A stretch of 64,000 nt of DNA from an uncultured Acidobacteriota bacterium (GTDB taxonomy: Bacteria; Acidobacteriota; Thermoanaerobaculia; Gp7-AA8): assembly GCA_963741955.1 (NCBI GenBank), contig CAVUKB010000010.1, positions 416,001-480,000 on the forward strand, given 5' to 3'. A program made the position numbers and the translations under genes. The notes beneath the pieces are model-generated. The model was not told the origin of the DNA. It made no database searches and worked only from the letters and a program-made list of their open reading frames with translations. Positions within the stretch are counted from its first letter, which is position 1. Each line of letters begins with the position of its first letter. Positions 23,698 through 63,903 of the stretch are shown piece by piece.

Positions 23698-23748
23698 CCC
23701 CGGTTCGGTTGATCGGAGGGAGCCCAGGACCTCCGTCCCGGGCTATTG

Positions 23749-23829
23749 TCAAACGCCCCTCCGGGGCTGGCCCGATCCCCGATCCTCGATCCGCGAGGAC
23801 CTGGGATGGTTCAAACGCCCCTCCGGGGC
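23749..23829. repeat. Two REP-like palindromes TCAAACGCCCCTCCGGGGC
   Basis: Direct copies at 23749 and 23811. The GCCCC-nnn-GGGGC hairpin resembles the tnpA-associated repeats at 53-64 kb. Confidence 0.6.
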
Positions 23830-23850
23830 CGTCCCCGACCGCCGACCGCC

Positions 23851-24184
23851 GACCCCCGATCCCCGATCCTCGATCCTCGATCCTCGATCCCCGATCCTCG
23901 ATCCTCGATCCTCGATCCCCGATCCTCGATCCTCGATCCTCGATCACCGATCCTCGATCACCGATCCTCGATCCTCGATCCTCGATCCCCGATCCCCGAT
24001 CCTCGATCCTCGATCCCCGATCCTCGATCCTCGATCCTCGATCCTCGATCCTCGATCCCCGATCCTCGATCCTCGATCCCCGATCCTCGATCCCCGATCC
24101 TCGATCCTCGATCCCCGATCCTCGATCCCCGATCCCCGATCCCCGATCCCCGATCCCCGATCCTCGATCCTCGATCCTCGATCA
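23851..24184. repeat. Long heptamer tandem repeat (GATCCTC / GATCCCC / GATCACC)n, ~47 units
   Basis: Visible directly. Confidence 0.95.
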
Positions 24185-53087: not shown

Positions 53088-53754
53088 GGTGAGACGCCCC
53101 GAAGGGGCGGCGGAGATTAGCCGGTGGGAAGAGCGGCGGCAGCCGCGCGCACCCACCGGAGGAGAAGACAAACGAACGGGTGAGACGCCCCGAAGGGGCG
53201 GGGGAGATTAGCCGGTGGGAAGCGGGGCGATAGCCGCGCGCACCCACCGGAGGAGAAGACAAACGAACGGGTGAGACGCCCCGAAGGGGCGGCGGAGATT
53301 AGCCGGTGGGAAGAGCGGCGGCAGCCGCGCGCACCCACCGGAGGAGAAGACAAACGAACGGGTGAGACGCCCCGAAGGGGCGGCGGAGATTAGCCGGTGG
53401 GAAGAGCGGCGGCAGCCGCGCGCACCCACCGGAGGAGAAGACAAACGAACGGGTGAGACGCCCCGAAGGGGCGGGGGAGATTAGCCGGTGGGAAGCGGGG
53501 CGATAGCCGCGCGCACCCACCGGAGGAGAAGACAAACGAACAGGTGAGACGCCCCGAAGGGGCGGCGGAGATTAGCCGGTGGGAAGAGCGGGGCGATAGC
53601 CGCGCGCACCCACCGGAGGAGAAGACAAACGAACGGGTGAGACGCCCCGAAGGGGCGGCGGAGATTAGCCGGTGGGAAGAGCGGCGGCAGCCGCGCGCAC
53701 CCACCGGAGGAGAAGACAAACGAACGGGTGAGACGCCCCGAAGGGGCGGCGGAG
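53088..53754 (-). repeat. Tandem array of 91-bp double-hairpin REP-like units (7 full + 1 partial), at the 3' side of tnpA
   Basis: Unit starts at 53088, 53179, 53270, 53361, 53452, 53543, 53636 and 53727. Hairpins CGCCCC-GAA-GGGGCG and CCGGTGGG...CCCACCGG. Confidence 0.95.
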
Positions 53755-53777
53755 AAGCTGCGCAAAACGCGACGAGG

Positions 53778-54224
53778 TCAAAGGAAATACCGTTCGTCGA
53801 ATTCGATCCCGGCTTCTGTGAGAAGCTTTCGATATTCTTCTTCAAACGTGCTCTGGCGGTGATGGTCCTCCTGGTTGCGGATATACCGGCGGACGCCGTC
53901 CACGCTCGACGGGCTGACGCTGAAGCCCGCATATCCTTCCTGCCACGCGAAATCGCGGACGTTCAATTCGTCATGGACCCAGGAGGACGCTTCGCTCTTG
54001 ATCTCGCGCAACAAGTCGGCGATCCGATGAGTGGCCCGAATTCCGGCGAGGATGTGCACGTGATCGGAAATTCCGCCGATCTCGAGAGGAATAGTGTCGA
54101 GTGTCTTCAGACAACCGCCGAGGTACGCGTGAAGGCGTGGACGCCAGTCGTCTCGAATGAGCGGGCGGCGATGTTTCGTTCCGAAGACGATGTGGACATT
54201 GAGCGCGAGGAATGTCGAAGGCAT
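53778..54224 (-). CDS. tnpA: IS200/IS605-family Y1 HUH transposase (TnpA, REP-associated type), no tnpB
   Basis: Motifs HIVFGTKHR, DHVHIL (HUH), WQEGY and YIRNQ..HH (catalytic Tyr). Confidence 0.92.
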   Translation of the reverse strand: MPSTFLALNVHIVFGTKHRRPLIRDDWRPRLHAYLGGCLKTLDTIPLEIGGISDHVHILAGIRATHRIADLLREIKSEASSWVHDELNVRDFAWQEGYAGFSVSPSSVDGVRRYIRNQEDHHRQSTFEEEYRKLLTEAGIEFDERYFL

Positions 54225-54257
54225 TCGTGATTCTACCTCGGTGGCGCTGTGACCCTC

Positions 54258-54952
54258 ATCTCCGGCGCCCCTTCAGGGCGCGTGCAGGGTGTGCGTTCAA
54301 CGCGAGGAGCGGTGGGTGCGGACCGCGTTGCGGTCCTTCCCACCGGCTGATCTCCGGCGCCCCTTCGGGGCGCGTGTAGGGTGTGCGTTCAACGCGAGGA
54401 GCGGTGGGTGCGGACCGCGTTGCGGTCCTTCCCACCGGCTGATCTCCGGCGCCCCTTCGGGGCGCGTGTAGGGTGTGCGTTCAACGCGAGGAGCGGTGGG
54501 TGCGGACCGCGTTGCGGTCCTTCCCACCGGCTAATCTCCGGCGCCCCTTCGGGGCGCGTGTAGGGTGTGCGTTCAACGCGAGGAGCGGTGGGTGCGGACC
54601 GCGTTGCGGTCCTTCCCACCGGCTGATCTCCGGCGCCCCTTCGGGGCGCGTGCAGGGTGTGCGTTCAACGCGAGGAGCGGTGGGTGCGGACCGCGTTGCG
54701 GTCCTTCCCACCGGCTGATCTCCAGCGCCCCTTCGGGGCGCGTGTAGGGTGTGCGTTCAACGCGAGGAGCGGTGGGTGCGGACCGCGTTGCGGTCCTTCC
54801 CACCGGCTAATCTCCGGCGCCCCTTCGGGGCGCGTGTAGGGTGTGCGTTCAACGCGAGGAGCGGTGGGTGCGGACCGCGTTGCGGTCCTTCCCACCGGCT
54901 AATCTCCGGCGCCCCTTCGGGGCGCGTGTAGGGTGTGCGTTCAACGCGAGGA
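54258..54952 (+). repeat. Tandem array of 92-bp double-hairpin REP-like units (7 full + 1 partial), at the 5' side of tnpA, inverted relative to the 53088 array
   Basis: Unit starts at 54258, 54350, 54442, 54534, 54626, 54718, 54810 and 54902. Core TTCCCACCGGCT(A/G)ATCTCCGGCGCCCCTTCGGGGCG. Confidence 0.95.
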
Positions 54953-55040
54953 CTCTATGCCTTCGTTGCCGAAGCCGGGTGCGCCTTGCATCCAAGCCAC
55001 TCTCCACCTCCTCGCGACGAGACGGTGTGAGAAATGCGGG

Positions 55041-55838
55041 CTAGTCGCCGATGAAATTGTGCGTGAGTTTCGGGATCGCATCGTTCGACACCGCACTCAC
55101 GAATGAGATGCTCGGTTGACTTACCGTCACGGAAACGTACGTGCCACGGAGTCTCCCTTCCGGTCCGCACGCGGTGTAGCCCACCACTCCGGAGTCGAGC
55201 CGCACCGCCTGGATCGTGGTGTTGGCGGGAATCGTGATCGTGGCGGACGCAATGCTCGCGTCGTCGCACATCCGGTGGACCGACACATCCGCAACGGCGG
55301 CGTCCGTTCCCGCGTTGTAGATCGCCACGTTCACCCGCCGATCCATGAGGCCGAGATCCGTTCCCAGGAATACCTGCTCCTCATTCGCCGGCTTGAGTGC
55401 GGTGAATTCCGGGAGTGTGATCTGCCCGAGCGAGGTGGCCATGTCGTGGAATTCGCAGTCGACCGCCCTCAGCTCGAGATAAGTGTTCGTATCGACTCCC
55501 TCGGGAACGTCGAGCTTCCAGATCCAGATAGGGACACCGCCCAGCGCGCTGGGTTGCCAGGTGCCAGCCACCGCACTCTCGATCGATGAACTTGCACCCG
55601 GCGCTATGGTGAATTCCCGGCTGGGCGTGTCGATCACGCCGTTGCTCGCATCGAGCAGACGAATCGTCTGAGGCGCGTTCGTTCCGTTGTGAAAGAGCAC
55701 GTTGGAATGCCAGAACTGATAGACACAGGGGTTGATCGGCGCGCCCGCGGCTGTGACGCCGATTGTATAGAGGTCCCTCGCCGAGACCGCCGTCGCCGTC
55801 GCGATGATCAGCACGGCTATCAGAGTTCGCACGTTCAT
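55041..55838 (-). CDS. Secreted hypothetical protein (copy 1)
   Basis: Signal peptide, GGAGG RBS, paralog at 60357-61148. Confidence 0.8.
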   Translation of the reverse strand: MNVRTLIAVLIIATATAVSARDLYTIGVTAAGAPINPCVYQFWHSNVLFHNGTNAPQTIRLLDASNGVIDTPSREFTIAPGASSSIESAVAGTWQPSALGGVPIWIWKLDVPEGVDTNTYLELRAVDCEFHDMATSLGQITLPEFTALKPANEEQVFLGTDLGLMDRRVNVAIYNAGTDAAVADVSVHRMCDDASIASATITIPANTTIQAVRLDSGVVGYTACGPEGRLRGTYVSVTVSQPSISFVSAVSNDAIPKLTHNFIGD

Positions 55839-55897
55839 GTCGCCTCCTTCCAGATTCGGGACCGTCGTCCGGAGCGGTCCTCATCGATTCACAAGAT

Positions 55898-57481
55898 TCA
55901 ATACACGATCCGAGCGAGATTGACCTCTCCATTGTCAGGGCCCGGAACCGTAACGAACGCTGGGACCGCGCGTTCTCCGAACGAATAGCTCCAGTCCCAC
56001 AGTGATTGATAATCCCCGATGAAGAATGCATCCGCGCCCGCCACGGTTGAAATTAGGGTCGGATCAGATTGGCTCGACGTGATCCTCGTGTTCGGCTCGA
56101 GCCGCACGCCGTCGACGTTCAGATATGCATAGTATTCATGGTATTTCTTGTTCTGGGGGTCGTCGCGGCGATCGTAGAAGGCGATCACCACGTTGCCCGC
56201 ACTATTGAAGTCGATCGCGGGCATGAATTGATCGTTCGTGCTGTTGTCGTTCACCTGGATCGCGTTGCGCCAGCCCCAGGCGTTGCAGTTCGACGTGCAG
56301 GGCTTATAGCTATAATAGACTTCCATCGATCCGGTCTCGGCGGAATAGCCCATCCACGTGACGATAACGCGACCCGATTGGTAATGAAAGCGCGCGAGGG
56401 CGCATGTTTGCGCAGGCACGCCCGGGTAGATCGTCGGCCCCAGGTAATAGGGCCCGGTCACCTGTTCGTACCAACCAAAAGAGATTCCGTAATCGGTGGA
56501 TGACGCCACGACGATTCTCTGGTTCGTATTGTCCAACCAGAACACGTACAGTTTGCCCGTATTCGAATCCACCACGAGGTCCGGAGCAGTCACGCGGCCG
56601 ATCGAGATCACGACGGGCGTACCGAAGCTGAGGCCGCCATCGGTGCTGCGTTCGACGACGAGCGCGTTTTGCGTGCGATCGTACTCGTTCACACTCACGT
56701 AGGCGACGTACACGTATCCGAGCGTGTTCGGGTGCGTCGAGACTGCGATGGCGGGGCGATCGAGGAGGTAGTGGTTGCTGCGCATTTCAACGATGGTCGG
56801 GCCAGACCACGTCGCTCCCCCGGTGTCCGTTCGCCAGACTCCGATCGCGCTGATATCCGTGAAATTGCCGTTGTGAAGAAGGCCGGCCACGTAGACGCGC
56901 TTTCCGGCGATACCACCGGTGTAGGGGTTGACGGCCGTCTGCGGGTCGGCAGACCGCGTGTACCCGGCTGGAATGCTCAACTGGCCGGTCGTGAAGGAGG
57001 AGAAGTTCGTCGTGTAGGCGTAGTAGATCGAGGCGTACTTTTGAGGCGGACCGTACTTGATCCACGCGGATACGCTGTATTGCGTCCCAAAGACGGTCGT
57101 TGCGGTCGTCGATGGTTCCACGTCGAGATACGCATCGTTCGTGACCCGTATGGGCCCCCCTGAGAGCGACTCGACGCTGAGATTCGATGAACTATCGGTG
57201 GCGCCGCCGAATGTCTCTGCGTCGCCGACTTCGCTCGAGCGGGCCAGATCGGAGTAGAGGGCTCCGCTGAGCGTGAAGCCGTCCAGTTCAGCGCGCGTCA
57301 GGGGCGTCCGAGGAGGGCCTGGCGTCCATATCCGTGTCGGTTGTTGGTTCGGGGCGGTCGGTTTCACCGCTGCCGGCATCGCGACAGCCGGAAGCGGCGG
57401 TGGGTCGCTGGCGCGGACCGGGAGCGTAGAGGCGATCGCGACTACTGCGGCGGCGGCAAGCATGGTGCGCACGGAAGACAT
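55898..57481 (-). CDS. Secreted BNR/Asp-box beta-propeller (sialidase-like fold) protein (copy 1)
   Basis: Signal peptide; RTDTGGATW, RSTDGGLSF and SSTDYGISF Asp boxes; DQFMP, FYDRR and FIGDY motifs. Confidence 0.8.
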   Translation of the reverse strand: MSSVRTMLAAAAVVAIASTLPVRASDPPPLPAVAMPAAVKPTAPNQQPTRIWTPGPPRTPLTRAELDGFTLSGALYSDLARSSEVGDAETFGGATDSSSNLSVESLSGGPIRVTNDAYLDVEPSTTATTVFGTQYSVSAWIKYGPPQKYASIYYAYTTNFSSFTTGQLSIPAGYTRSADPQTAVNPYTGGIAGKRVYVAGLLHNGNFTDISAIGVWRTDTGGATWSGPTIVEMRSNHYLLDRPAIAVSTHPNTLGYVYVAYVSVNEYDRTQNALVVERSTDGGLSFGTPVVISIGRVTAPDLVVDSNTGKLYVFWLDNTNQRIVVASSTDYGISFGWYEQVTGPYYLGPTIYPGVPAQTCALARFHYQSGRVIVTWMGYSAETGSMEVYYSYKPCTSNCNAWGWRNAIQVNDNSTNDQFMPAIDFNSAGNVVIAFYDRRDDPQNKKYHEYYAYLNVDGVRLEPNTRITSSQSDPTLISTVAGADAFFIGDYQSLWDWSYSFGERAVPAFVTVPGPDNGEVNLARIVY

Positions 57482-57506
57482 GGAGATTCCCTTCAGAATG
57501 AAGATG

Positions 57507-57653
57507 TTAGAAGACGATTCTGGAGAGATGGATGTCACCCAGACGGGTACCGAAGATCCCCGTCCACGCACCGCTGATGCTCTCGCCATCTCCGTATATC
57601 CAATCCCAGGTGTGCTGGTCGTTCGTCTCATGGAGTTCCTCCGTCCGTTTCAT
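57507..57653 (-). pseudogene. 48-codon ORF homologous to the BNR protein C-terminus
   Basis: DQHTWDWIYGDGESISGAWTGIFGTRLGDIHLSRIVF* compared with DYQSLWDWSYSFGERAVPAFVTVPGPDNGEVNLARIVY*. Confidence 0.65.
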
Positions 57654-57740
57654 CGCGCTCGGTGTCCACGGCGTTCGACTCGCCGACGCGGTTCCTCAAA
57701 CATAGGCCGGCGCCTGCGTCACGTATAGTCGCTATTCTTG

Positions 57741-59324
57741 GGTTCTCCTAACAGGTGTGTAGGTGCGGAATGATTGTCGGAGGCATGCAGGAACGGCGAC
57801 GCGGCTGTTTTCGAGGAGCAAGTCGGTGTTCGCCGAAGCGTTCGGAAAGCGAAGTTGTGGAAACCGCGGAAAACGCCGCCACCCGGCCGCCGCGTTTTCC
57901 GCCGTTCCCACAACTTGCCCCGCCGTCGCGGAAGGATCTGAAGGAGCCCCGAAAGTCGCTGCTCGTGGAGAGGTGAAGATCGAAGCAGCGATAGCAGGTT
58001 GGAATCGGCGAACCGTGCTGCCCATTTCCCGTAGTCTGTAGTCGATGAAACCAAGACACGGGGAGGACAGGCACGGTGCGCCTGACGACATTGTTCCGGA
58101 AGTTGCTCAACATGGCAAACGTAACGGTTCGCGGGGTTCGGTTCGAAGCTCGGAGTCTCTATCTCGACGTGAGTCCAACGTGGAGACGTCCGCGGTGCGG
58201 AGGGTGCGGACGGGTTGCTCCCGAGCTTCACGGAACGGTGATGAAGCATCGCGAATGGCGTCATCTCGGCCTCTGGGGATGCCGGGTGATGCTGCGGGCG
58301 GATCTGCCGCGGGTGCGTTGCCGCCGCTGCGGGGTGCGAACGGCCGCGGTTCCGTGGGCACGGCCTGGTTCGATGTTCACCCGCGCGTTCGAAGACGAGC
58401 TTGCCTGGTTTCTGCAGCGATCCAATCAAACCGCGGTCTCGGCGTACTTCAAGGTCAGCTGGCTCACGGCCGGACGGATCGCCGCTCGAGTGGTTGCCGA
58501 AAAACGCGACCCGAACGCGCTCGAGAATCTGACCCGGATCGGCATCGACGAGATCTGCTGGGGGCGGCCGAAGAAGTTCATGACCGTGGTCACGAACCAC
58601 GAGACCGGGCAGATGATCTGGGCGGCGAAGGGTAAAAGTGCAGAGGTTCTCGACGGGCTGTTCGATCTGCTCGGCCCCGAGCGCTGCGCGCGAATCCGTC
58701 TGGTGAGCATCGACATGAGCGCGGCCTTCGAGAAAGCTGTTCGCGACCGACTGCCGAACGCCGAGGTCGTTTTCGATCGGTTCCACGTGGTCCAACTCCT
58801 CGGGAATGCGATCGATCAGGTGAGGCGGGACGAGATGCGAAAGGCCACCGGCGAGGAGCGCTCCGCTCTCAAATCCACTCGGTTCGTCCTCCTGAAGAAC
58901 CCCTGGAACCTGCGTGATGCCGAGGAGGCGAAACTCTCGGAGCTCGCGCGGATGAATCACACCCTCTTTCGCAGTTACCTGGTCAAGGAATCCTTTCAGG
59001 ACATCTATGACTCCTCGTCCGTCCGCCAAGCTGATCGACGGTTCAAGCGCTGGTATCAGTCCGCGGTTCATAGCCGCATTCAACCCCTCGTTCGCTTCGC
59101 GCGAACCGTCGCGGCGAAATGGCCTGGCATCCGCCGTTACTTCGAGTATCGACTCACGAATGCAGTTGCTGAAGGCTGCAACAACAAGATCCGAATGCTC
59201 AGTCACCGCGCTTTCGGCTTTCACACCGCGGAAGCTCTGATCGCAATGGCGTTCCTCTGTACGTCAGCAATCGCATTCCATCCTCTCGGCCTATGAACTC
59301 TGCTACACACCTGTTAGGAGATCC
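57741..59324 (+). mobile_element. ISL3-family insertion sequence, 1584 bp
   Basis: Terminal IRs GGTTCTCCTAACAGGTGTGTAG / CTACACACCTGTTAGGAGATCC (21/22 match). 8-bp TSD TATTCTTG at 57733-57740 and 59325-59332. Empty site visible in the paralogous copy near 62959. Confidence 0.95.
58076..59296 (+). CDS. ISL3-family DDE transposase
   Basis: Zn finger CGGC...CRRC; motifs IGIDE, SIDMS, FDRFHV, TNAVAEG.NNKI and RAFGF. Confidence 0.95.
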   Translation: MRLTTLFRKLLNMANVTVRGVRFEARSLYLDVSPTWRRPRCGGCGRVAPELHGTVMKHREWRHLGLWGCRVMLRADLPRVRCRRCGVRTAAVPWARPGSMFTRAFEDELAWFLQRSNQTAVSAYFKVSWLTAGRIAARVVAEKRDPNALENLTRIGIDEICWGRPKKFMTVVTNHETGQMIWAAKGKSAEVLDGLFDLLGPERCARIRLVSIDMSAAFEKAVRDRLPNAEVVFDRFHVVQLLGNAIDQVRRDEMRKATGEERSALKSTRFVLLKNPWNLRDAEEAKLSELARMNHTLFRSYLVKESFQDIYDSSSVRQADRRFKRWYQSAVHSRIQPLVRFARTVAAKWPGIRRYFEYRLTNAVAEGCNNKIRMLSHRAFGFHTAEALIAMAFLCTSAIAFHPLGL

Positions 59325-59771
59325 TATTCTTGGACATCACAATTTGCTGTGATCTGCGGATGGCCGTTGTCGATTTGGGACGCCGTGGGCGTTGGGCTTT
59401 CTCGGTAAGATCCTTGCGTCCTCCCGAGGTGTCGCTCGAAGAGTTGATAGAGTCGGCGTCGGGTGCGGATCCCGGTGCGGTACGCGATCGTGGCGTTGGA
59501 GAGGGCGGTTGTCTCAAGGAGGTGTATTGCCGCATGAATCTGGCGGCAGATGATCCAGGCGGTGGTGGTGCGGCCCGTGAGCCGCTGGAAGTGCCGGTCG
59601 AGGTGTCGCCGGCTCAGTCGGAGTGTTGCGGCGAGTTCTTTCAACCGCCGGCGTGTTCTTCCGGGCGAAGCACGTTCGGAGGTAGGATTCTGCCGTGGAC
59701 AGGAGGTCGTCCATGGAGGATCGGTGTTGCGGTACGTCTTCCTTTCGCGAGTATCTGGGCACGTCGCGCAT
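59324..59771 (-). pseudogene. Short AraC-type HTH regulator, frameshifted (copy 1)
   Basis: KELAATLRLSRRHLDRHF...IAYRTG..F...G.T...YR. One extra base at ~59643 relative to copy 2. Confidence 0.75.
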
Positions 59772-59913
59772 CGAGAAAGTCCCCTTCCATCAGGGGAGTA
59801 CCGACAGGACCGTATTTCGCTACCCCCGCCGCGCCATATCGTCACGGTCTCGTAACATCCGGAGCGTGTCGAATGGCTGGTGCTTTCGCGGATGGGGATG
59901 CGCTCGACCAGGT

Positions 59914-59952
59914 CGCGAGGAAGGTCGAAGGCATTCGTGATGGTACCTCGGT
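59914..59952 (-). pseudogene. 5' stub of tnpA (MPSTFLA plus upstream sequence)
   Basis: CGCGAGGAAGGTCGAAGGCATTCGTGATGGTACCTCGGT matches 54204-54242. Confidence 0.75.
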
Positions 59953-59968
59953 TGGCGGGAAGATACCG

Positions 59969-60270
59969 ATCTCCGGCGCCCCTTCGGGGCGGAACGATGG
60001 ATTGGAATCGCGAACGCGGGAACCGGTGGGTGCGGATCGCTGCGCGGTCCTTCCCACCGGCTAATGTCCGAGGCCCCTTCGGGGCGTGTGAGGGAATGGC
60101 GTCGGTCGCGAAAACCGGTGGGTGCGGGCCGCGATGCGGTCCTTCCCACCGGCTAATCTCCCTCGCCCCTTCGGGGCGTGTGGGGGAATGGCGTCGGTCA
60201 CGGGAACCGGTGGGTGCGGGCCGCGATGCGGTCCTTCCCACCGGCTAATGTCCGGCGCCCCTTCGGGGCG
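59969..60270 (+). repeat. Third cluster of the same REP-like unit (4 CGCCCCTTCGGGGCG-type hairpins, spacing 95/92/92 bp) with different linker sequence
   Basis: GCCCC starts at 59978, 60073, 60165 and 60257. Confidence 0.9.
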
Positions 60271-60356
60271 GGGCGCGCCCTCCTCGAGCCCTGAGTATTT
60301 CTTCGGGCGGTGGTATACCGGATGGAGATGCCGCCGCCTCGGCCCGATAGTAGGAC

Positions 60357-61148
60357 CTAGTCGCCGATGAAATTGTGCGTGAGTTTCGGGATCGTTTCGT
60401 TCGAAATCGCACTCACGAATGCGATGCTCGGCTGACTTACCGTCACGGACACGTACGTGCCGCGGCCTCTCCCTTCCGGTCCGCACGCGGTGTAGCCCAC
60501 CGCTCCCGAGGCGAGCCGCACCGCCTGGATCGTGGTGTTGGCGGGAATCGTGATCGTGGCGGATGCGATGGTCGCGTCGTCGCACATCCGGTGGACCGTC
60601 ACATCCGCAACGGCGGCCTCCGTTCCCGCATTGTAGATCGCGACGTTCACCCGCCGATCCATGAGGCCGAGATCCGTCCCGAGGAATACCTGCTCCTCAT
60701 CCGCGGGCTTGAGTGCGGTGAATTCCGGGAGCGTGATCTGCCCGAGCGAGGTGGCCATGTCGTGGAATTCGCAGTCGACCGCTCTCAGCTCGAGATAGGT
60801 GTTCGTATCGACTCCCTCGGGAACGTCGAGCTTCCAGATCCAGAGATTGTCTTCTCCGACCGCGATCGGCCGCCACTTTACATTCTCCCACTCGAGCGAG
60901 GTGCTCGCGCCGGCTGCGATGACGAACTCGCGAAAAGGCGCGTCGATGATTCCATTGCTCACACCCAGCAGGCGAATCATCTGAGGCGCGTGCGTTCCGT
61001 TGTGAAAGAGCACGTTGGATTGCCAGAACTGATAGACACACGGGTTAATGGGCGCGCCCGCGGCTTCAACGCCAATCATGTAGATGTCCTTCGCCAGCCC
61101 GGGAGCAGCGAGCGCGGCGATCAGAACTGTGAGTATCGCGTATTTCAT
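60357..61148 (-). CDS. Secreted hypothetical protein (copy 2)
   Basis: Paralog of 55041-55838; MKYAILTV signal peptide. Confidence 0.8.
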   Translation of the reverse strand: MKYAILTVLIAALAAPGLAKDIYMIGVEAAGAPINPCVYQFWQSNVLFHNGTHAPQMIRLLGVSNGIIDAPFREFVIAAGASTSLEWENVKWRPIAVGEDNLWIWKLDVPEGVDTNTYLELRAVDCEFHDMATSLGQITLPEFTALKPADEEQVFLGTDLGLMDRRVNVAIYNAGTEAAVADVTVHRMCDDATIASATITIPANTTIQAVRLASGAVGYTACGPEGRGRGTYVSVTVSQPSIAFVSAISNETIPKLTHNFIGD

Positions 61149-61222
61149 AATCTTCCTTTCTCGATATCCGGAGGCGTCGTCAGCGAAACTGCGAAGCCAC
61201 GCGTGCCGTAGTCGCGCCTGCG

Positions 61223-62707
61223 TCAATACGTGATCCGCGCAAGATCCACTTCCCCGTTGTCGGAACCTACAACCGTCGTGAACGCGGGTATGCCGCGCTC
61301 TCCGAACGAATAGGTCCAGTCCCACAGCGACTGGTAGTCGCCGATGAAGTCCACCACGGCGCCGGCGGTCGCATGGATATCTGTCGGATCTGATGGTGTA
61401 GTTGTTATTCGCGTATTTGCCTCCAAGCGCGCGCCGTCGACGTTCAGATATGCGTAGTATTCGTGATACTTTATGTTCTGGGGGTCGTCGCGGCGATCGT
61501 AGAAGGCGATCACCACGTTGCCGGCACTGTTGAAGTCGATCGCGGGCATGAATTGATCGTTCGTGCTGTTGTCGTTCACCTGGATCGGGTTGCGCCAGCC
61601 CCAGGCGTTGCAGTTCGACGTGCAGGGCTTATAGCTATAATAGACTTCCATCGATCCGGTCTCGGCGGAATAGCCCATCCACGTGACGATAACGCGACCC
61701 GATTGGTAATGGAAGCGCGCGAGGGCGCATGTTTGCGCGGGCACGCCCGGGTAGATCGTCGGCCCCAGGTAATAGGGCCCGGTCACCTGTTCGTACGAAC
61801 CAAAAGAGATTCCGTAATCGGTGGATGACGCCACGACGATTCTCTGGTTCGTATTGTCCGACCAGAACACGTACAGTTTGCCCGTATTCGAATCCACCAC
61901 GAGGTCCGGAGCAGTCACGCGGCCGATCGAGATTACGACGGGCGTACCGAAGCTAAGGCCGCCATCGGTGCTGCGTTCGACGACGAGCGCGTTTTGCGTG
62001 CGATCGTACTCGTTCACGCTCACGTAGGCGACGTACACGTATCCGAGCGTGTTCGGGTGCGTCGAGACTGCGATGGCAGGGCGATCGAGGAGGTAGTGGT
62101 TGCTGCGCATTTCAACGATGGTCGGGCCAGACCACGTACCACCGGTGTACGGGTTGACAGCCGTCTGCGGGTCGGCAGACCGCGTGTACCCGGCTGGAAT
62201 GCTCAGCTGGCCGGTCGTGAAGGAGGAGAAGTTCGTCGTGTAGGCGTAGTAGATCGAGGCGTACTTTTGAGGCGGACCGTACTTGATCCACGCGGATACG
62301 CTGTATTGCGTCCCAAAGACGGTCGTTGCGGTCGTCGATGGTTCCACGTCGAGATACGCATCGTTCGTGACCCGTATGGGCCCCCCTGAGAGCGACTCGA
62401 CGCTGAGATTCGATGAACTATCGGTGGCGCCGCCGAATGTCTCTGCGTCGCCGACTTCGCTCGAGCGGGCCAGATCGGAGTAGAGGGCTCCGCTGAGCGT
62501 GAAGCCGTCCAGTTCAGCGCGCGTCAGGGGCGTCCGAGGAGGGCCTGGCGTCCATATCCGTGTCGGTTGTTGGTTCGGGGCGGTCGGTCTCACCGCTGCC
62601 GGCATCGCGACAGCCGGAAGCGGCGGTGGGTCGCTGGCGCGGACCGGGAGCGTAGAGGCGATCGCGACTACTGCGGCGGCGGCAAGCATGGTGCGCACGG
62701 AAGACAT
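61223..62707 (-). CDS. Secreted BNR/Asp-box protein (copy 2, 33-aa in-frame deletion)
   Basis: Near-identical to copy 1 except for the deletion and a diverged C-terminus. Confidence 0.8.
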   Translation of the reverse strand: MSSVRTMLAAAAVVAIASTLPVRASDPPPLPAVAMPAAVRPTAPNQQPTRIWTPGPPRTPLTRAELDGFTLSGALYSDLARSSEVGDAETFGGATDSSSNLSVESLSGGPIRVTNDAYLDVEPSTTATTVFGTQYSVSAWIKYGPPQKYASIYYAYTTNFSSFTTGQLSIPAGYTRSADPQTAVNPYTGGTWSGPTIVEMRSNHYLLDRPAIAVSTHPNTLGYVYVAYVSVNEYDRTQNALVVERSTDGGLSFGTPVVISIGRVTAPDLVVDSNTGKLYVFWSDNTNQRIVVASSTDYGISFGSYEQVTGPYYLGPTIYPGVPAQTCALARFHYQSGRVIVTWMGYSAETGSMEVYYSYKPCTSNCNAWGWRNPIQVNDNSTNDQFMPAIDFNSAGNVVIAFYDRRDDPQNIKYHEYYAYLNVDGARLEANTRITTTPSDPTDIHATAGAVVDFIGDYQSLWDWTYSFGERGIPAFTTVVGSDNGEVDLARITY

Positions 62708-62732
62708 GGAGATTCCCTTCAGAATGAAGATG

Positions 62733-62879
62733 TTAGAAGACGATTCTGGAGAGATGGGTGTCGCCCGGACGTGCGCCGGAGATCCTCGTTCACGTGCTGC
62801 TGATGCTCTCCCCGTCTCCGTATGTCCAATCGCAGGCGTCCTGGTCGTTCGTCTCATGGGGTCCCTCCGTCCGTTTGAT
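62733..62879 (-). pseudogene. Degenerate second copy of the BNR C-terminal fragment
   Basis: DQDACDWTYGDGESISST*TRISGARPGDTHLSRIVF*; internal stop, ATG changed to ATC. Confidence 0.6.
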
Positions 62880-62957
62880 CGCGGTCGGTGTCCACGGCGT
62901 TCGACTCGCCGACGCGGTTCCTCAAACATAGGCCGGCGCCTGCGTCACGTATAGTCG

Positions 62958-63404
62958 CTATTCTTGGACATCACAATTTGCTGTGATCTGCGGATGGCCG
63001 TTGTCGATTTGGGACGCCGTGGGCGTTGGGCTTTCTCGGTAAGATCCTGGCGTCCTCCCGAGGTGTCGCTCGAAGAGTTGATAGAGTCGGCGTCGGGTGC
63101 GGATCCCGGTGCGGTACGCGATCGTGGCGTTGGAGAGGGCGGTTGTCTCAAGGAGGTGTATTGCCGCATGAATCTGGCGGCAGATGATCCAGCCGGTGGT
63201 GGTGCGGCCCGTGAGTCGCTGGAAGTGTCGGTCGAGGTGTCGCCGGCTCAGTCCGAGTGTTGCGGCGAGTTCTTTCACCGCCGGCGCGTTCTCCCGGGCG
63301 AAGCACGTCCGGAGGTAGGATTCTGCCGTGGACAGGAAGTCATCCGTGGAGGATCGTTGTTGCGGTACGTCTTCCTTACGCGAGTACCCGGGCCCGTCGC
63401 ACAT
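62958..63404 (-). CDS. Short AraC-type HTH regulator (copy 2, intact frame)
   Basis: PAVKELAATLGLSRRHLDRHF...LLETTALSNATIAYRTG...GRTPGSYR. Confidence 0.75.
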   Translation of the reverse strand: MCDGPGYSRKEDVPQQRSSTDDFLSTAESYLRTCFARENAPAVKELAATLGLSRRHLDRHFQRLTGRTTTGWIICRQIHAAIHLLETTALSNATIAYRTGIRTRRRLYQLFERHLGRTPGSYRESPTPTASQIDNGHPQITANCDVQE

Positions 63405-63547
63405 CGAAGAGTCCCCTTCCGTCAGGGGAGTACCGACAGGACCGCATTCCGCTACCCCGGTCCCCTCGTATCGTCACGGTGTCGTAACACCGCGAGCCTG
63501 TCGAAATAGCTGGGGCTTTCGCGGAAGGGGATGCGCTCGATCGGGTC

Positions 63548-63770
63548 TTTCGTGCGTATCTCGGCGGTTGCCTCAGGACACTCAACGCCATTCCTCTCGA
63601 GATCGGCGGGGTCTCGGACTGCCTTCAGCGTCAGCCCCTCGAATGTGGAGGGCGTGCGCCGGTATATCTGCGATCAGGAGGATCATCACCGCCGCCTCAG
63701 TTTTGAAGAGGAATATCGAAAGCTTCTCACCGACGCCGGGATCGAATTCGACGAACGCTATTTTCTTTGA
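63548..63770 (+). pseudogene. Internally deleted tnpA remnant, inverted relative to the intact copy
   Basis: RAYLGGCLRTLNAIPLEIGGVSD is joined out of frame to FSVSPSNVEGVRRYICDQEDHH...FDERYFL*. The HUH motif is missing. Confidence 0.85.
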
Positions 63771-63799
63771 CCTCGTCGCGTCCCGCGCATCATCTGGCA

Positions 63800-63903
63800 C
63801 ACCCCTTAGGGGTGCCAATCGGTCTCGCTCTCCTCGTAAACCGGTGGGAAGGACGGCTGCGCCGTCCTTCCCACCGGCTAATGTCCGTCGCCCCTTCGGG
63901 GCG
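63800..63903 (+). repeat. Fourth REP-like cluster downstream of the tnpA remnant
   Basis: CACCCCTTAGGGGTG, the hairpin CCGGTGGGAAGGACGGC...GCCGTCCTTCCCACCGG, and CGCCCCTTCGGGGCG. Confidence 0.85.

Follow-up and report, generated by a model that had tools for sequence, protein, structure and literature searches.

We analysed a stretch of 64,000 nucleotides (nt) from the genome of an uncultured Acidobacteriota bacterium (contig CAVUKB010000010.1, positions 416,001 to 480,000; hereafter the window). At 53088-54952 it holds a REPtron-like element of TnpA-Y1 subclass 1.2, whose inverted ends are related to the Rfam family Acido-Lenti-1 and are both locally amplified. With good confidence, we read the locus as a subclass-1.2 tnpA gene lying between two inverted three-hairpin ends, each locally expanded, and encoding an enzyme that likely recognises and copies those ends. 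The hairpins are called B, A and B' below, and the features are as follows.

53778..54224, minus strand: tnpA, a Y1/HUH nuclease gene assigned to TnpA-Y1 subclass 1.2, 148 residues (open reading frame, motifs and Pfam)
53088..53755, plus strand: downstream end, amplified; seven units (B, 8-nt spacer, TAG, hairpin A, linker) reading towards the gene
53095, 53186, 53277, 53368, 53459, 53550 and 53643, plus strand: starts of the downstream-end B hairpins, with the terminal B' at 53734-53748
54258..54952, minus strand: upstream end, amplified; a partial linker (54952-54926), then seven units reading towards the gene
54924, 54832, 54740, 54648, 54556, 54464 and 54372, minus strand: starts of the upstream-end B hairpins, with the terminal B' at 54280-54266
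54955..55044, no strand assigned: dispersed element with terminal inverted repeats, unrelated to the TnpA unit and outside it, present as a truncated copy (113 blastn hits)

Read towards the gene, both arrays follow one plan, in which B, an 8-nt spacer, TAG or CAG, hairpin A and a linker are repeated seven times and followed by one B. The feet of the window units are TTAG and TCAG, and hairpin A carries an AA/GC internal bulge. Tandem Repeats Finder gave a period of 91 with 7.3 copies and 95% matches for 53088-53755, and a period of 92 with 7.6 copies and 98% matches for 54258-54952. The two arrays are inverted relative to each other, with 37-nt arms that are 95-97% complementary. A sequence-only reading made before this work had described an intact 148-residue Y1/HUH gene (DHVH, YIRNQ) without tnpB between inverted arrays of seven full units and one partial unit. 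The open reading frame, the Pfam Y1_Tnp match and the neighbouring genes confirm the gene, and the repeat search and unit listing confirm the arrays as assembled. Its unit length of 91-92 bp holds for nearly all window units: the left units measure 91, 91, 91, 91, 91, 93 and 91 bp and the right units 92 bp in all seven cases, each series ending in a last B hairpin. The single 93-bp left unit is a chimera of two variants. The units fold into two hairpins with z-scores of -4.3 to -5.3, and none of 200 shuffles folded equally well. The strand that functions is probably not the one written in the sequence-only reading but its reverse. At the outer end of the right array, an extra, nearly whole linker is joined to the truncated dispersed repeat; because of this fusion the right array was probably once longer, and the truncated element at 54955-55044 marks the deletion that cut it.

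The enzyme and its paired ends

The tnpA product carries DHVH at residues 54-57 and YIRNQEDHH at 114-122, its key residues being H55, H57, W94-Q95, Y114, Q118, H121 and H122. It matched Pfam Y1_Tnp at 76.8 bits (cut-off 23) and the NCBIfam IS200/IS605 model NF033573 at 55.9 bits, barely above the cut-off of 55. Thirty residues follow Q118, with F127, E130, L135, G139, D143 and E144 conserved. Conservation was scored over 115 of 120 listed close relatives, in all of which Y114, H121 and H122 were invariant (115/115). Two positions named for the IS608 dimer were mixed in this set, that of T115 holding T or S in 113/115 and that of P73 holding P in 13/115. Among homologs cut from fetched loci, loci with short matches being excluded, 78/87 showed YxxxQxxHH. 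The nearest solved structures by sequence were IS608 TnpA and another IS200-type TnpA, not TnpA-REP. A single-sequence structure model of the product reached a predicted local distance difference test score (pLDDT) of 41 and was unusable. The gene's neighbours are icd and a 265-residue open reading frame without a Pfam match, and a check of these neighbours by open reading frame and Pfam found no TnpB-like frame adjoining tnpA.

Table 1 of PMC6006769 gives subclass 1.2 a median length of 148 residues, DH[IV]H, WQ, YIKNQKEHH, a 30-residue tail and the entry 'REP: no', where REP stands for repetitive extragenic palindrome. The protein studied here shows each of the protein features, namely the length, DH[IV]H, WQ, YxxxQxxHH and the tail. 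The low copy number and divergence of the subclass were also found: besides tnpA, the host genome has two more intact genes, which are 42% and 36% identical to it, and one decayed local copy. By its motifs, tnpA is assigned to subclass 1.2, which places it with IS200 within the family, and is not a class-2 REP-associated tyrosine transposase (RAYT).

We then compared homolog loci, 30 from 61 related genomes and 69 from GTDB genomes of several phyla. A simple detector was run on the 75 loci that had enough flank. At 38 of them a B - nTAG - A unit faced the gene on both sides, against 12/254 control windows; units faced away from the gene on both sides at 2/75. Each side normally has one B - A - linker - B'. 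With a stricter detector, 27 of 66 loci had one unit on each side, 14 had units on one side and 2 were 1+2, while 7+7 occurred only in the window; short-read assemblies under-report arrays, which limits these copy counts. The inverted three-hairpin end, composed of B, nTAG-footed A, linker and B', is thus the default of homologs across several phyla. Because inverted ends are conserved at 38/75 loci, the absence of REP-like flanks ascribed to subclass 1.2 does not hold here, and the 'no REPs' column of PMC6006769 appears to be an oversight of looking for GT[AG]G.

The geometry of these ends is regular. The distance from the B loop to the T of TAG was 16-17 nt in 66/83 distinct units, and that from the end of hairpin A to the centre of B' was 32.0 +/- 2.5 nt in 76/83 (7 outliers dropped). 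With both distances fixed, the period follows the length of hairpin A: across homologs it ranges from about 65 to 98 nt and tracks that length with r = 0.95 (five values of 54-57 were probably mis-picked). At 30 two-ended loci the median period difference was 2 nt, hairpin A identity 0.945 and linker identity 0.36. The common core with array-specific linkers described by the sequence-only reading therefore recurs in homolog flanks, with the same core and differing linkers. Repetition of the stretch between the two B copies of such an end explains the 7+1 layout, the array linkers and the periods; near-equal periods and unrelated linkers are already present at single-copy ends. In 40 aligned ends, 93.9% of cells pair, two-sided changes occur in 9/14 pairs and 0/500 shuffles reached the covariation score, a result that leans towards structure because the aligned ends had been chosen as hairpins. 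Feet were GTAG in 30, ATAG in 30, TTAG in 17, ATAA in 6 and TCAG in 5 of 101 units, and AA follows the outer stem in 14/31 long A hairpins. In each unit family B' is followed by a conserved tail of 5-7 nt. A pyrimidine-pyrimidine-purine triplet marks the outer foot of B in one related genome (G014; 22, 22 and 23 of 25) and partly in another (G005); considered as a cut signal, it is found neither in the window nor in the family of units at the host paralog on contig C7, and was kept as a lead only.

Within the host genome, enzyme and repeat go together. There are 11 Y1_Tnp matches, and the unit flanks 3/3 subclass-1.2 genes and 0/8 other Y1 genes; five class-2 host genes, recognisable by YxxxNP, are without such a unit. 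Counting the core motif genome-wide, as the sequence-only reading had proposed, gave 122 strict units against 12 and 12 in shuffles. Each of the three paralogs has its own version of hairpin A, and two of the versions have identical gene-less copies elsewhere. The C7-type unit occurs at 24 host loci, by a pattern that includes 4 copies of a sister type, and the C6 type at 6. The linkers of the C7-type family look by eye like diverged relatives of one another. Across the 61 related genomes, the window-type hairpin A pattern (at least two hits) was present in 19/21 with a strong TnpA match (E <= 1e-20) and in 3/40 without, in genomes that are kin rather than independent and with thresholds chosen after the tables had been seen.

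Relatives also hold gene-less inverted doublets of 180-270 bp, in which B-A-B' faces B'-A-B. Their left and right B' types are as in the full element and their outer border is sharp at the foot of B. A survey of 40 hand-chosen regions of three related genomes yielded 16 such doublets, in which no target duplication beyond chance was found (the longest end repeats measured 0-4 nt, no different from mismatched pairs). Genome G025 carries several copies of one gene-bearing element with the same ends at different sites. In Chryseobacterium, 14 species keep tnpA at one site. Among the 30 best-matching loci of 101 genomes, 16 were filled, 13 were empty and 1 (L120) retained only two outer B hairpins; from this pattern the unit appears to have inserted once, been inherited and at times been lost. 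It appears to lie between an insertion sequence (IS) and a domesticated gene. The Chryseobacterium element (L100-L129) is located in the 3' end of a kinase-like gene, and at filled sites the B hairpin supplies a new stop codon region.

We propose that TnpA would bind single-stranded DNA at hairpin A and the nTAG foot of this hairpin, a role suggested by the WQ motif it has in common with GTAG-binding RAYTs, and would nick through Tyr114 and rejoin the strand in the manner of E. coli TnpA-REP. Recognising the same end in single-stranded DNA, the enzyme likely copies that end around the genome.

Relation to Acido-Lenti-1

Acido-Lenti-1 (RF01687) was the only Rfam family to match the arrays at an expectation value of 5 or below. 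Fourteen window units scored 21.1-24.5 bits on the strand opposite to that on which B precedes A (the B-to-A strand); they fall below the cut-off of 37 because their hairpin A is longer and bulged. Matches above the cut-off were found at two homolog loci. In the host genome there are at least 46 copies above the cut-off (150 of 1068 candidates scored), 8 of which stand in inverted orientation at both ends of the C7 paralog, at 46.5-49.5 bits. Aligning the model with the anatomy of the unit, we found the RF01687 design of two hairpins, GGCTA and a joint of about 9 nt in the window units. The family (Weinberg et al. 2010, PMC2864571) shares the two-hairpin core with a GGCTA junction; it differs in that the Rfam model lies on the opposite strand, omits the linker and B', and is filed as a small RNA of unknown function.

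Loop sequences point to DNA. Our unit detector set no loop-sequence requirement, and on the B-to-A strand GNA or GNNA loops close 80/96 B and 65/84 B' hairpins, against 57/720 background hairpins. The reverse-strand form of these loops was seen in 2 B and 1 B' (background 43/720). According to PMC13037366, the stability of GCGNAGC and GCGNNAGC is unusually high in DNA and far lower in RNA. Along the stem of A, the B-to-A strand has 12 G-T pairs versus 2 A-C. Judged by these sequences, the loops are of the DNA mini-hairpin type and lie on the strand opposite to that of the Rfam model. Since the array core is a variant of Acido-Lenti-1, Acido-Lenti-1 itself is likely mobile DNA rather than RNA. 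In the literature searched, which covered sources other than subscription journals, no paper stated a link between Acido-Lenti-1 and tnpA.

An Acido-Lenti-1 copy above the cut-off lies at 23723-23768 of the window, beside a 7-bp tandem repeat of 46.7 copies (region 23723-24183). Most C7-type units sit within 7-bp repeats, and distant window-type units within a different 7-bp repeat.

Origin and size of the arrays

The locus is contained in one soil DNA sequencing run, perhaps that of the source sample, from whose contigs copy number was judged. These contigs match the gene, both inner ends and the left outer junction with no differences. Two or more units per array are supported, and seven is the number as assembled. 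The tandem units could be real and their number inflated by the assembly, the population carrying two or three units per side or a mixture. This would fit an array depth that is lower than expected, and a contig of the same run that omits one 92-nt unit of the window's third array. We consider it improbable, as the unit variants are distinct and stand in a non-random order that includes the 93-bp chimera, the assembly resolves 17 other near-identical copies of an ISL3-family element, and an unrelated Chryseobacterium genome has an 8-unit array. Contigs built at k = 31 collapse such repeats, and GC-rich hairpin arrays are commonly under-read.

For the growth of the arrays we favour events at the level of the host. 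B and B' are alike over about 20 nt, lie 91-92 nt apart and enclose a stable hairpin, and would misalign at replication or recombine unequally. As they are direct repeats, a duplication of what lies between them yields precisely (B-A-linker)n-B' with its own linker; each end's linker would be carried along, and expansion and shrinkage would continue. The host would amplify many repeat families in this way, the arrays being a by-product without a function of their own. At the orthologous Chryseobacterium site (24 loci), the upstream end has one unit in most genomes, two in L100 and L105, three in L102, about five in L108 and eight in L123, and the downstream end has about one throughout. At gene-less sites, C7-type units are arranged head to tail in runs whose period is 67-81 nt. 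The host genome contains 59 long tandem arrays (period 86-496, at least 3.8 copies, up to 23), 6 with this unit and 53 without, and tandem amplification seems to affect most of its repeat families. We judge host-level misalignment or unequal exchange to be sufficient, and more likely than an enzyme-driven route. Separately, many of the 59 long arrays carry GTGG-footed palindromes.

The sequence-only reading had suggested, as a possibility, amplification by rolling circle or slippage at TnpA nicks. In such a scheme, a nick would prime strand-displacement synthesis, or TnpA would excise a single-stranded circle of one period that re-integrates at the next B hairpin. Bacterial interspersed mosaic elements (BIMEs) are conserved at a locus with a number that varies between strains, and nick-primed amplification was proposed for them, with strand transfer in vitro (PMC3333891). 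The period here equals the B-to-B' distance exactly, the conserved tail after B' is a candidate cut site, and all three intact genes have multi-unit flanks, near which the enzyme may help. The scheme is possible and not needed: 53/59 long host arrays lack the unit, C7-type arrays lie far from any tnpA and 27/66 homolog loci are plainly 1+1. Free re-integration of circles would give A without B, yet a hairpin A lacking a B upstream is almost never seen; of 48 C7-type hits, 5 lacked the family B and all 5 show another B. We hold enzyme-driven amplification to be rather unlikely, leaving it some room because all three intact host genes have multi-unit flanks. More remote still is the proposal that short structured RNAs are processed from transcripts of the arrays, or that selection for enzyme spacing acts on array length and symmetry; we rate it as very improbable. 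Rfam does list the core as a small-RNA family, and both arrays have 7 units with periods of 91-92. The loop type fits DNA on the strand opposite to the Rfam model, nothing else points to RNA processing, a sigma-70 promoter scan found none, and the right array was probably once longer. Linkers were also considered as captured spacers or guides and rejected, as there are no variable spacers and the linker parts match nowhere in the genome outside the arrays. Fixed unit length and symmetric copy number had been taken as signs of a constraint. In homologs the period varies freely over 65-98 bp, set by hairpin A length, and copy number runs from 1 to 8 upstream with about 1 downstream at a single Chryseobacterium site; neither is therefore constrained. 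Finally, an ordinary IS200 element with a chance duplication of its subterminal hairpins would be in keeping with the NCBIfam score (55.9 vs 55), the IS200-type nearest structures and the several same-ended copies in genome G025. This explanation is scarcely credible and already largely refuted, given WQ and YxxxQxxHH in place of W[TS] and Y[IV]ENQ, intact paralogs merely 36-42% identical, ends that are inverted rather than in one strand, and a gene kept at one site by 14 Chryseobacterium species.

Several results weigh against our preferred reading, that of a subclass-1.2 enzyme that copies its ends and of arrays grown locally. The stricter detector found no unit at 22/66 homolog loci. The exact unit of the window occurs 18 times, never outside an 11-kb span, and has not spread; only a related unit is present at distant host sites, 6 in number. 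The cut site was not located, filled and empty Chryseobacterium sites being too diverged and A-rich. Dispersed units showed no replication-strand bias (16 vs 17, with a skew that is noisy on a 16-contig assembly), unlike IS608, which is biased to a replication strand. The kinship and late-set thresholds behind the co-occurrence count belong here too. Depth in the soil run was 20.3 and 24.2 on array contigs and 7.5-12.3 on single-copy flanks, about 2-2.5-fold versus the roughly 5-fold expected. The three intact subclass-1.2 genes all have multi-unit flanks (7+7, 3+5 and 1+9), and most gene-less sites have one unit.

The window also contains a second, broken copy and its ends.

59914..59934, minus strand: second, broken tnpA copy, first 21 nt
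59968..60270, minus strand: upstream end of the second copy, three units (92, 92 and 95 bp) and a terminal B', with the same hairpin A type and its own linker
63551..63770, plus strand: tnpA 3' remnant with an internal deletion, 80% identical over residues 99-148
63797..63903, minus strand: behind the 3' remnant, one B - TAG-A - linker - B' end that is not amplified

These lie in a tandem cassette duplication, window positions 54204-59914 and 59914-63547, whose copies are 83-97% identical and whose borders fall within tnpA remnants. The cassette comprises the tnpA start, the upstream end, the 265-residue open reading frame, a 577-residue open reading frame and an AraC-type helix-turn-helix; the 577-residue frame has a weak BNR-repeat match, in its copy. 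Positions 57741-59324 are an ISL3-family element (NF033550, 307.9 bits), of which there are 17 more full-length copies, 99.7-100% identical. A TAGAAT hexamer at 54230-54235, 5 nt ahead of the tnpA start, may be the -10 box of a leaderless transcript. A shared -10-like box in this position was dropped as a candidate, similar boxes being present in only 3/25 close homologs. The dispersed element truncated at 54955-55044 is about 180 bp long with terminal inverted repeats, and its 90-bp end accounts for the 113 blastn hits. At host contig C1:263460-263645 it is located within a related hairpin unit, in whose TTAG foot it lies with a TTAG to either side; at C5:1087706 it lies inside the foot of a C6-type unit. 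It may use hairpin-unit feet as targets. At C13:32485-34795 a five-copy array of 459 bp carries a complete C6-type B-A-B' end in every unit. Two unit families are without a matching tnpA in the host assembly, one with 14 copies (C1:387806, C7:162263, C7:1226084 and others) and one with 4 (C4:1856, C5:493369 and others), and are orphans of lost or unassembled genes.

A tentative extension, which we think possible though doubtful, is that subclass 1.2 is a living intermediate between IS200 and REPtrons. Its enzymes, tyrosine nucleases of IS200 type, would move a unit bounded by two inverted three-hairpin ends with or without the gene, make no target duplication, cut at the foot of B, at a set distance from the nTAG foot of hairpin A that guides them, and have seeded Acido-Lenti-1 in many phyla. 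If true, each enzyme would read only its own hairpin pair, making the subclass a natural panel of orthogonal single-strand DNA recombinases. On our preferred reading of the locus, an enzyme subclass published as without a substrate would gain one, and the abundant 'small RNA' of Rfam, which an October 2026 preprint still describes as 'of unknown function', would be identified; genome papers already interpret matches to it as regulators. With an IS200-side enzyme and REPtron-like, TAG-footed repeats in one element, the origin of REPtrons from IS200 becomes testable with a single small protein and oligonucleotides. What is least new here are the long arrays, the main point of the sequence-only reading, since many host repeats show the same by-product; the value lies in the pairing of enzyme and repeat.

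Comparison with known systems

The closest described relative of the enzyme is subclass 1.2 of Quentin et al. (2018, PMC6006769), with which it shares 148 residues, DH[IV]H, WQ, YxxxQxxHH, the 30-residue tail, low copy number and divergent paralogs. In Table S1 of that paper, none of the 25 places where TAGCC occurs is in a subclass-1.2 row. The 'IS200 group 3' of Bertels et al. (2017), whose members are described in PMC5581495 as neither duplicated nor present on plasmids and as flanked by abundant 16-mers, may correspond to this subclass.

In layout the element resembles REPtrons as described in PMC3333891, PMC3479197, PMC8266576 and PMC5581495. In both, a low-copy HUH gene is flanked by partner palindromes in varying numbers, each gene has a repeat family of its own, and tandem copies are conserved at a locus with a number that varies between strains. 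A tetranucleotide foot ending in TAG, the WQ motif and gene-less inverted doublets are likewise common to both. E. coli TnpA-REP needs an A12-A13/G26-C27 bulge in its REP (PMC3479197), which the AA/GC bulge of the window's hairpin A resembles. By contrast, the enzyme here is class 1, on the IS200 side, rather than class 2 with YxxxNP, and no base is prescribed at the first foot position (G 30, A 30, T 17 of 101). A second hairpin B at a fixed distance is obligatory and a third, B', is added, and the arrays consist of head-to-tail single units rather than REP/inverted-REP pairs. A class-2 TnpA-REP or RAYT was rejected on YIRNQEDHH in place of YxxxNP, and on the GT[AG]G foot, the window having TTAG and TCAG and homologs GTAG in 30/101. 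The term RAYT-like used in the sequence-only reading thus fits the enzyme's own partner hairpins and the REPtron-like layout, and does not fit the protein.

With IS200/IS605 elements of subclass 1.1 (IS608, ISDra2), the element shares the fold family, the catalytic residues, a tetranucleotide 5' of the hairpin and the lack of target duplication. It differs in having no tnpB, no near-identical copies, inverted ends and other W and Y motifs; W[TS], Y[IV]ENQ and many near-identical copies are all absent here, and subclass 1.1 was rejected. IS200/IS605 elements have two different ends acting on the same strand, whereas the ends here are inverted copies of one design. Their transposition is strand-specific and single-stranded (PMC8266576).

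Long inverted repeats around a tyrosine transposase gene are also found in the TIRtrons of Di Nocera et al. (2013, PMC3733652), where TIR stands for terminal inverted repeat. Some of these TIRs are 'double palindromic' and some are also dispersed (PMC3733652), and most of the TIRtron transposases (TIRYTs) are placed in subclass 2.1 by Quentin et al. (PMC6006769). A TIRtron was rejected on GGGGWSAS and a class-2 protein, the B hairpins of the window being followed by CG, not WSAS, and the protein being class 1. The ends described here may overlap with a double-palindromic TIR of PMC3733652, a comparison drawn with the text of that paper rather than with its TIR sequences.

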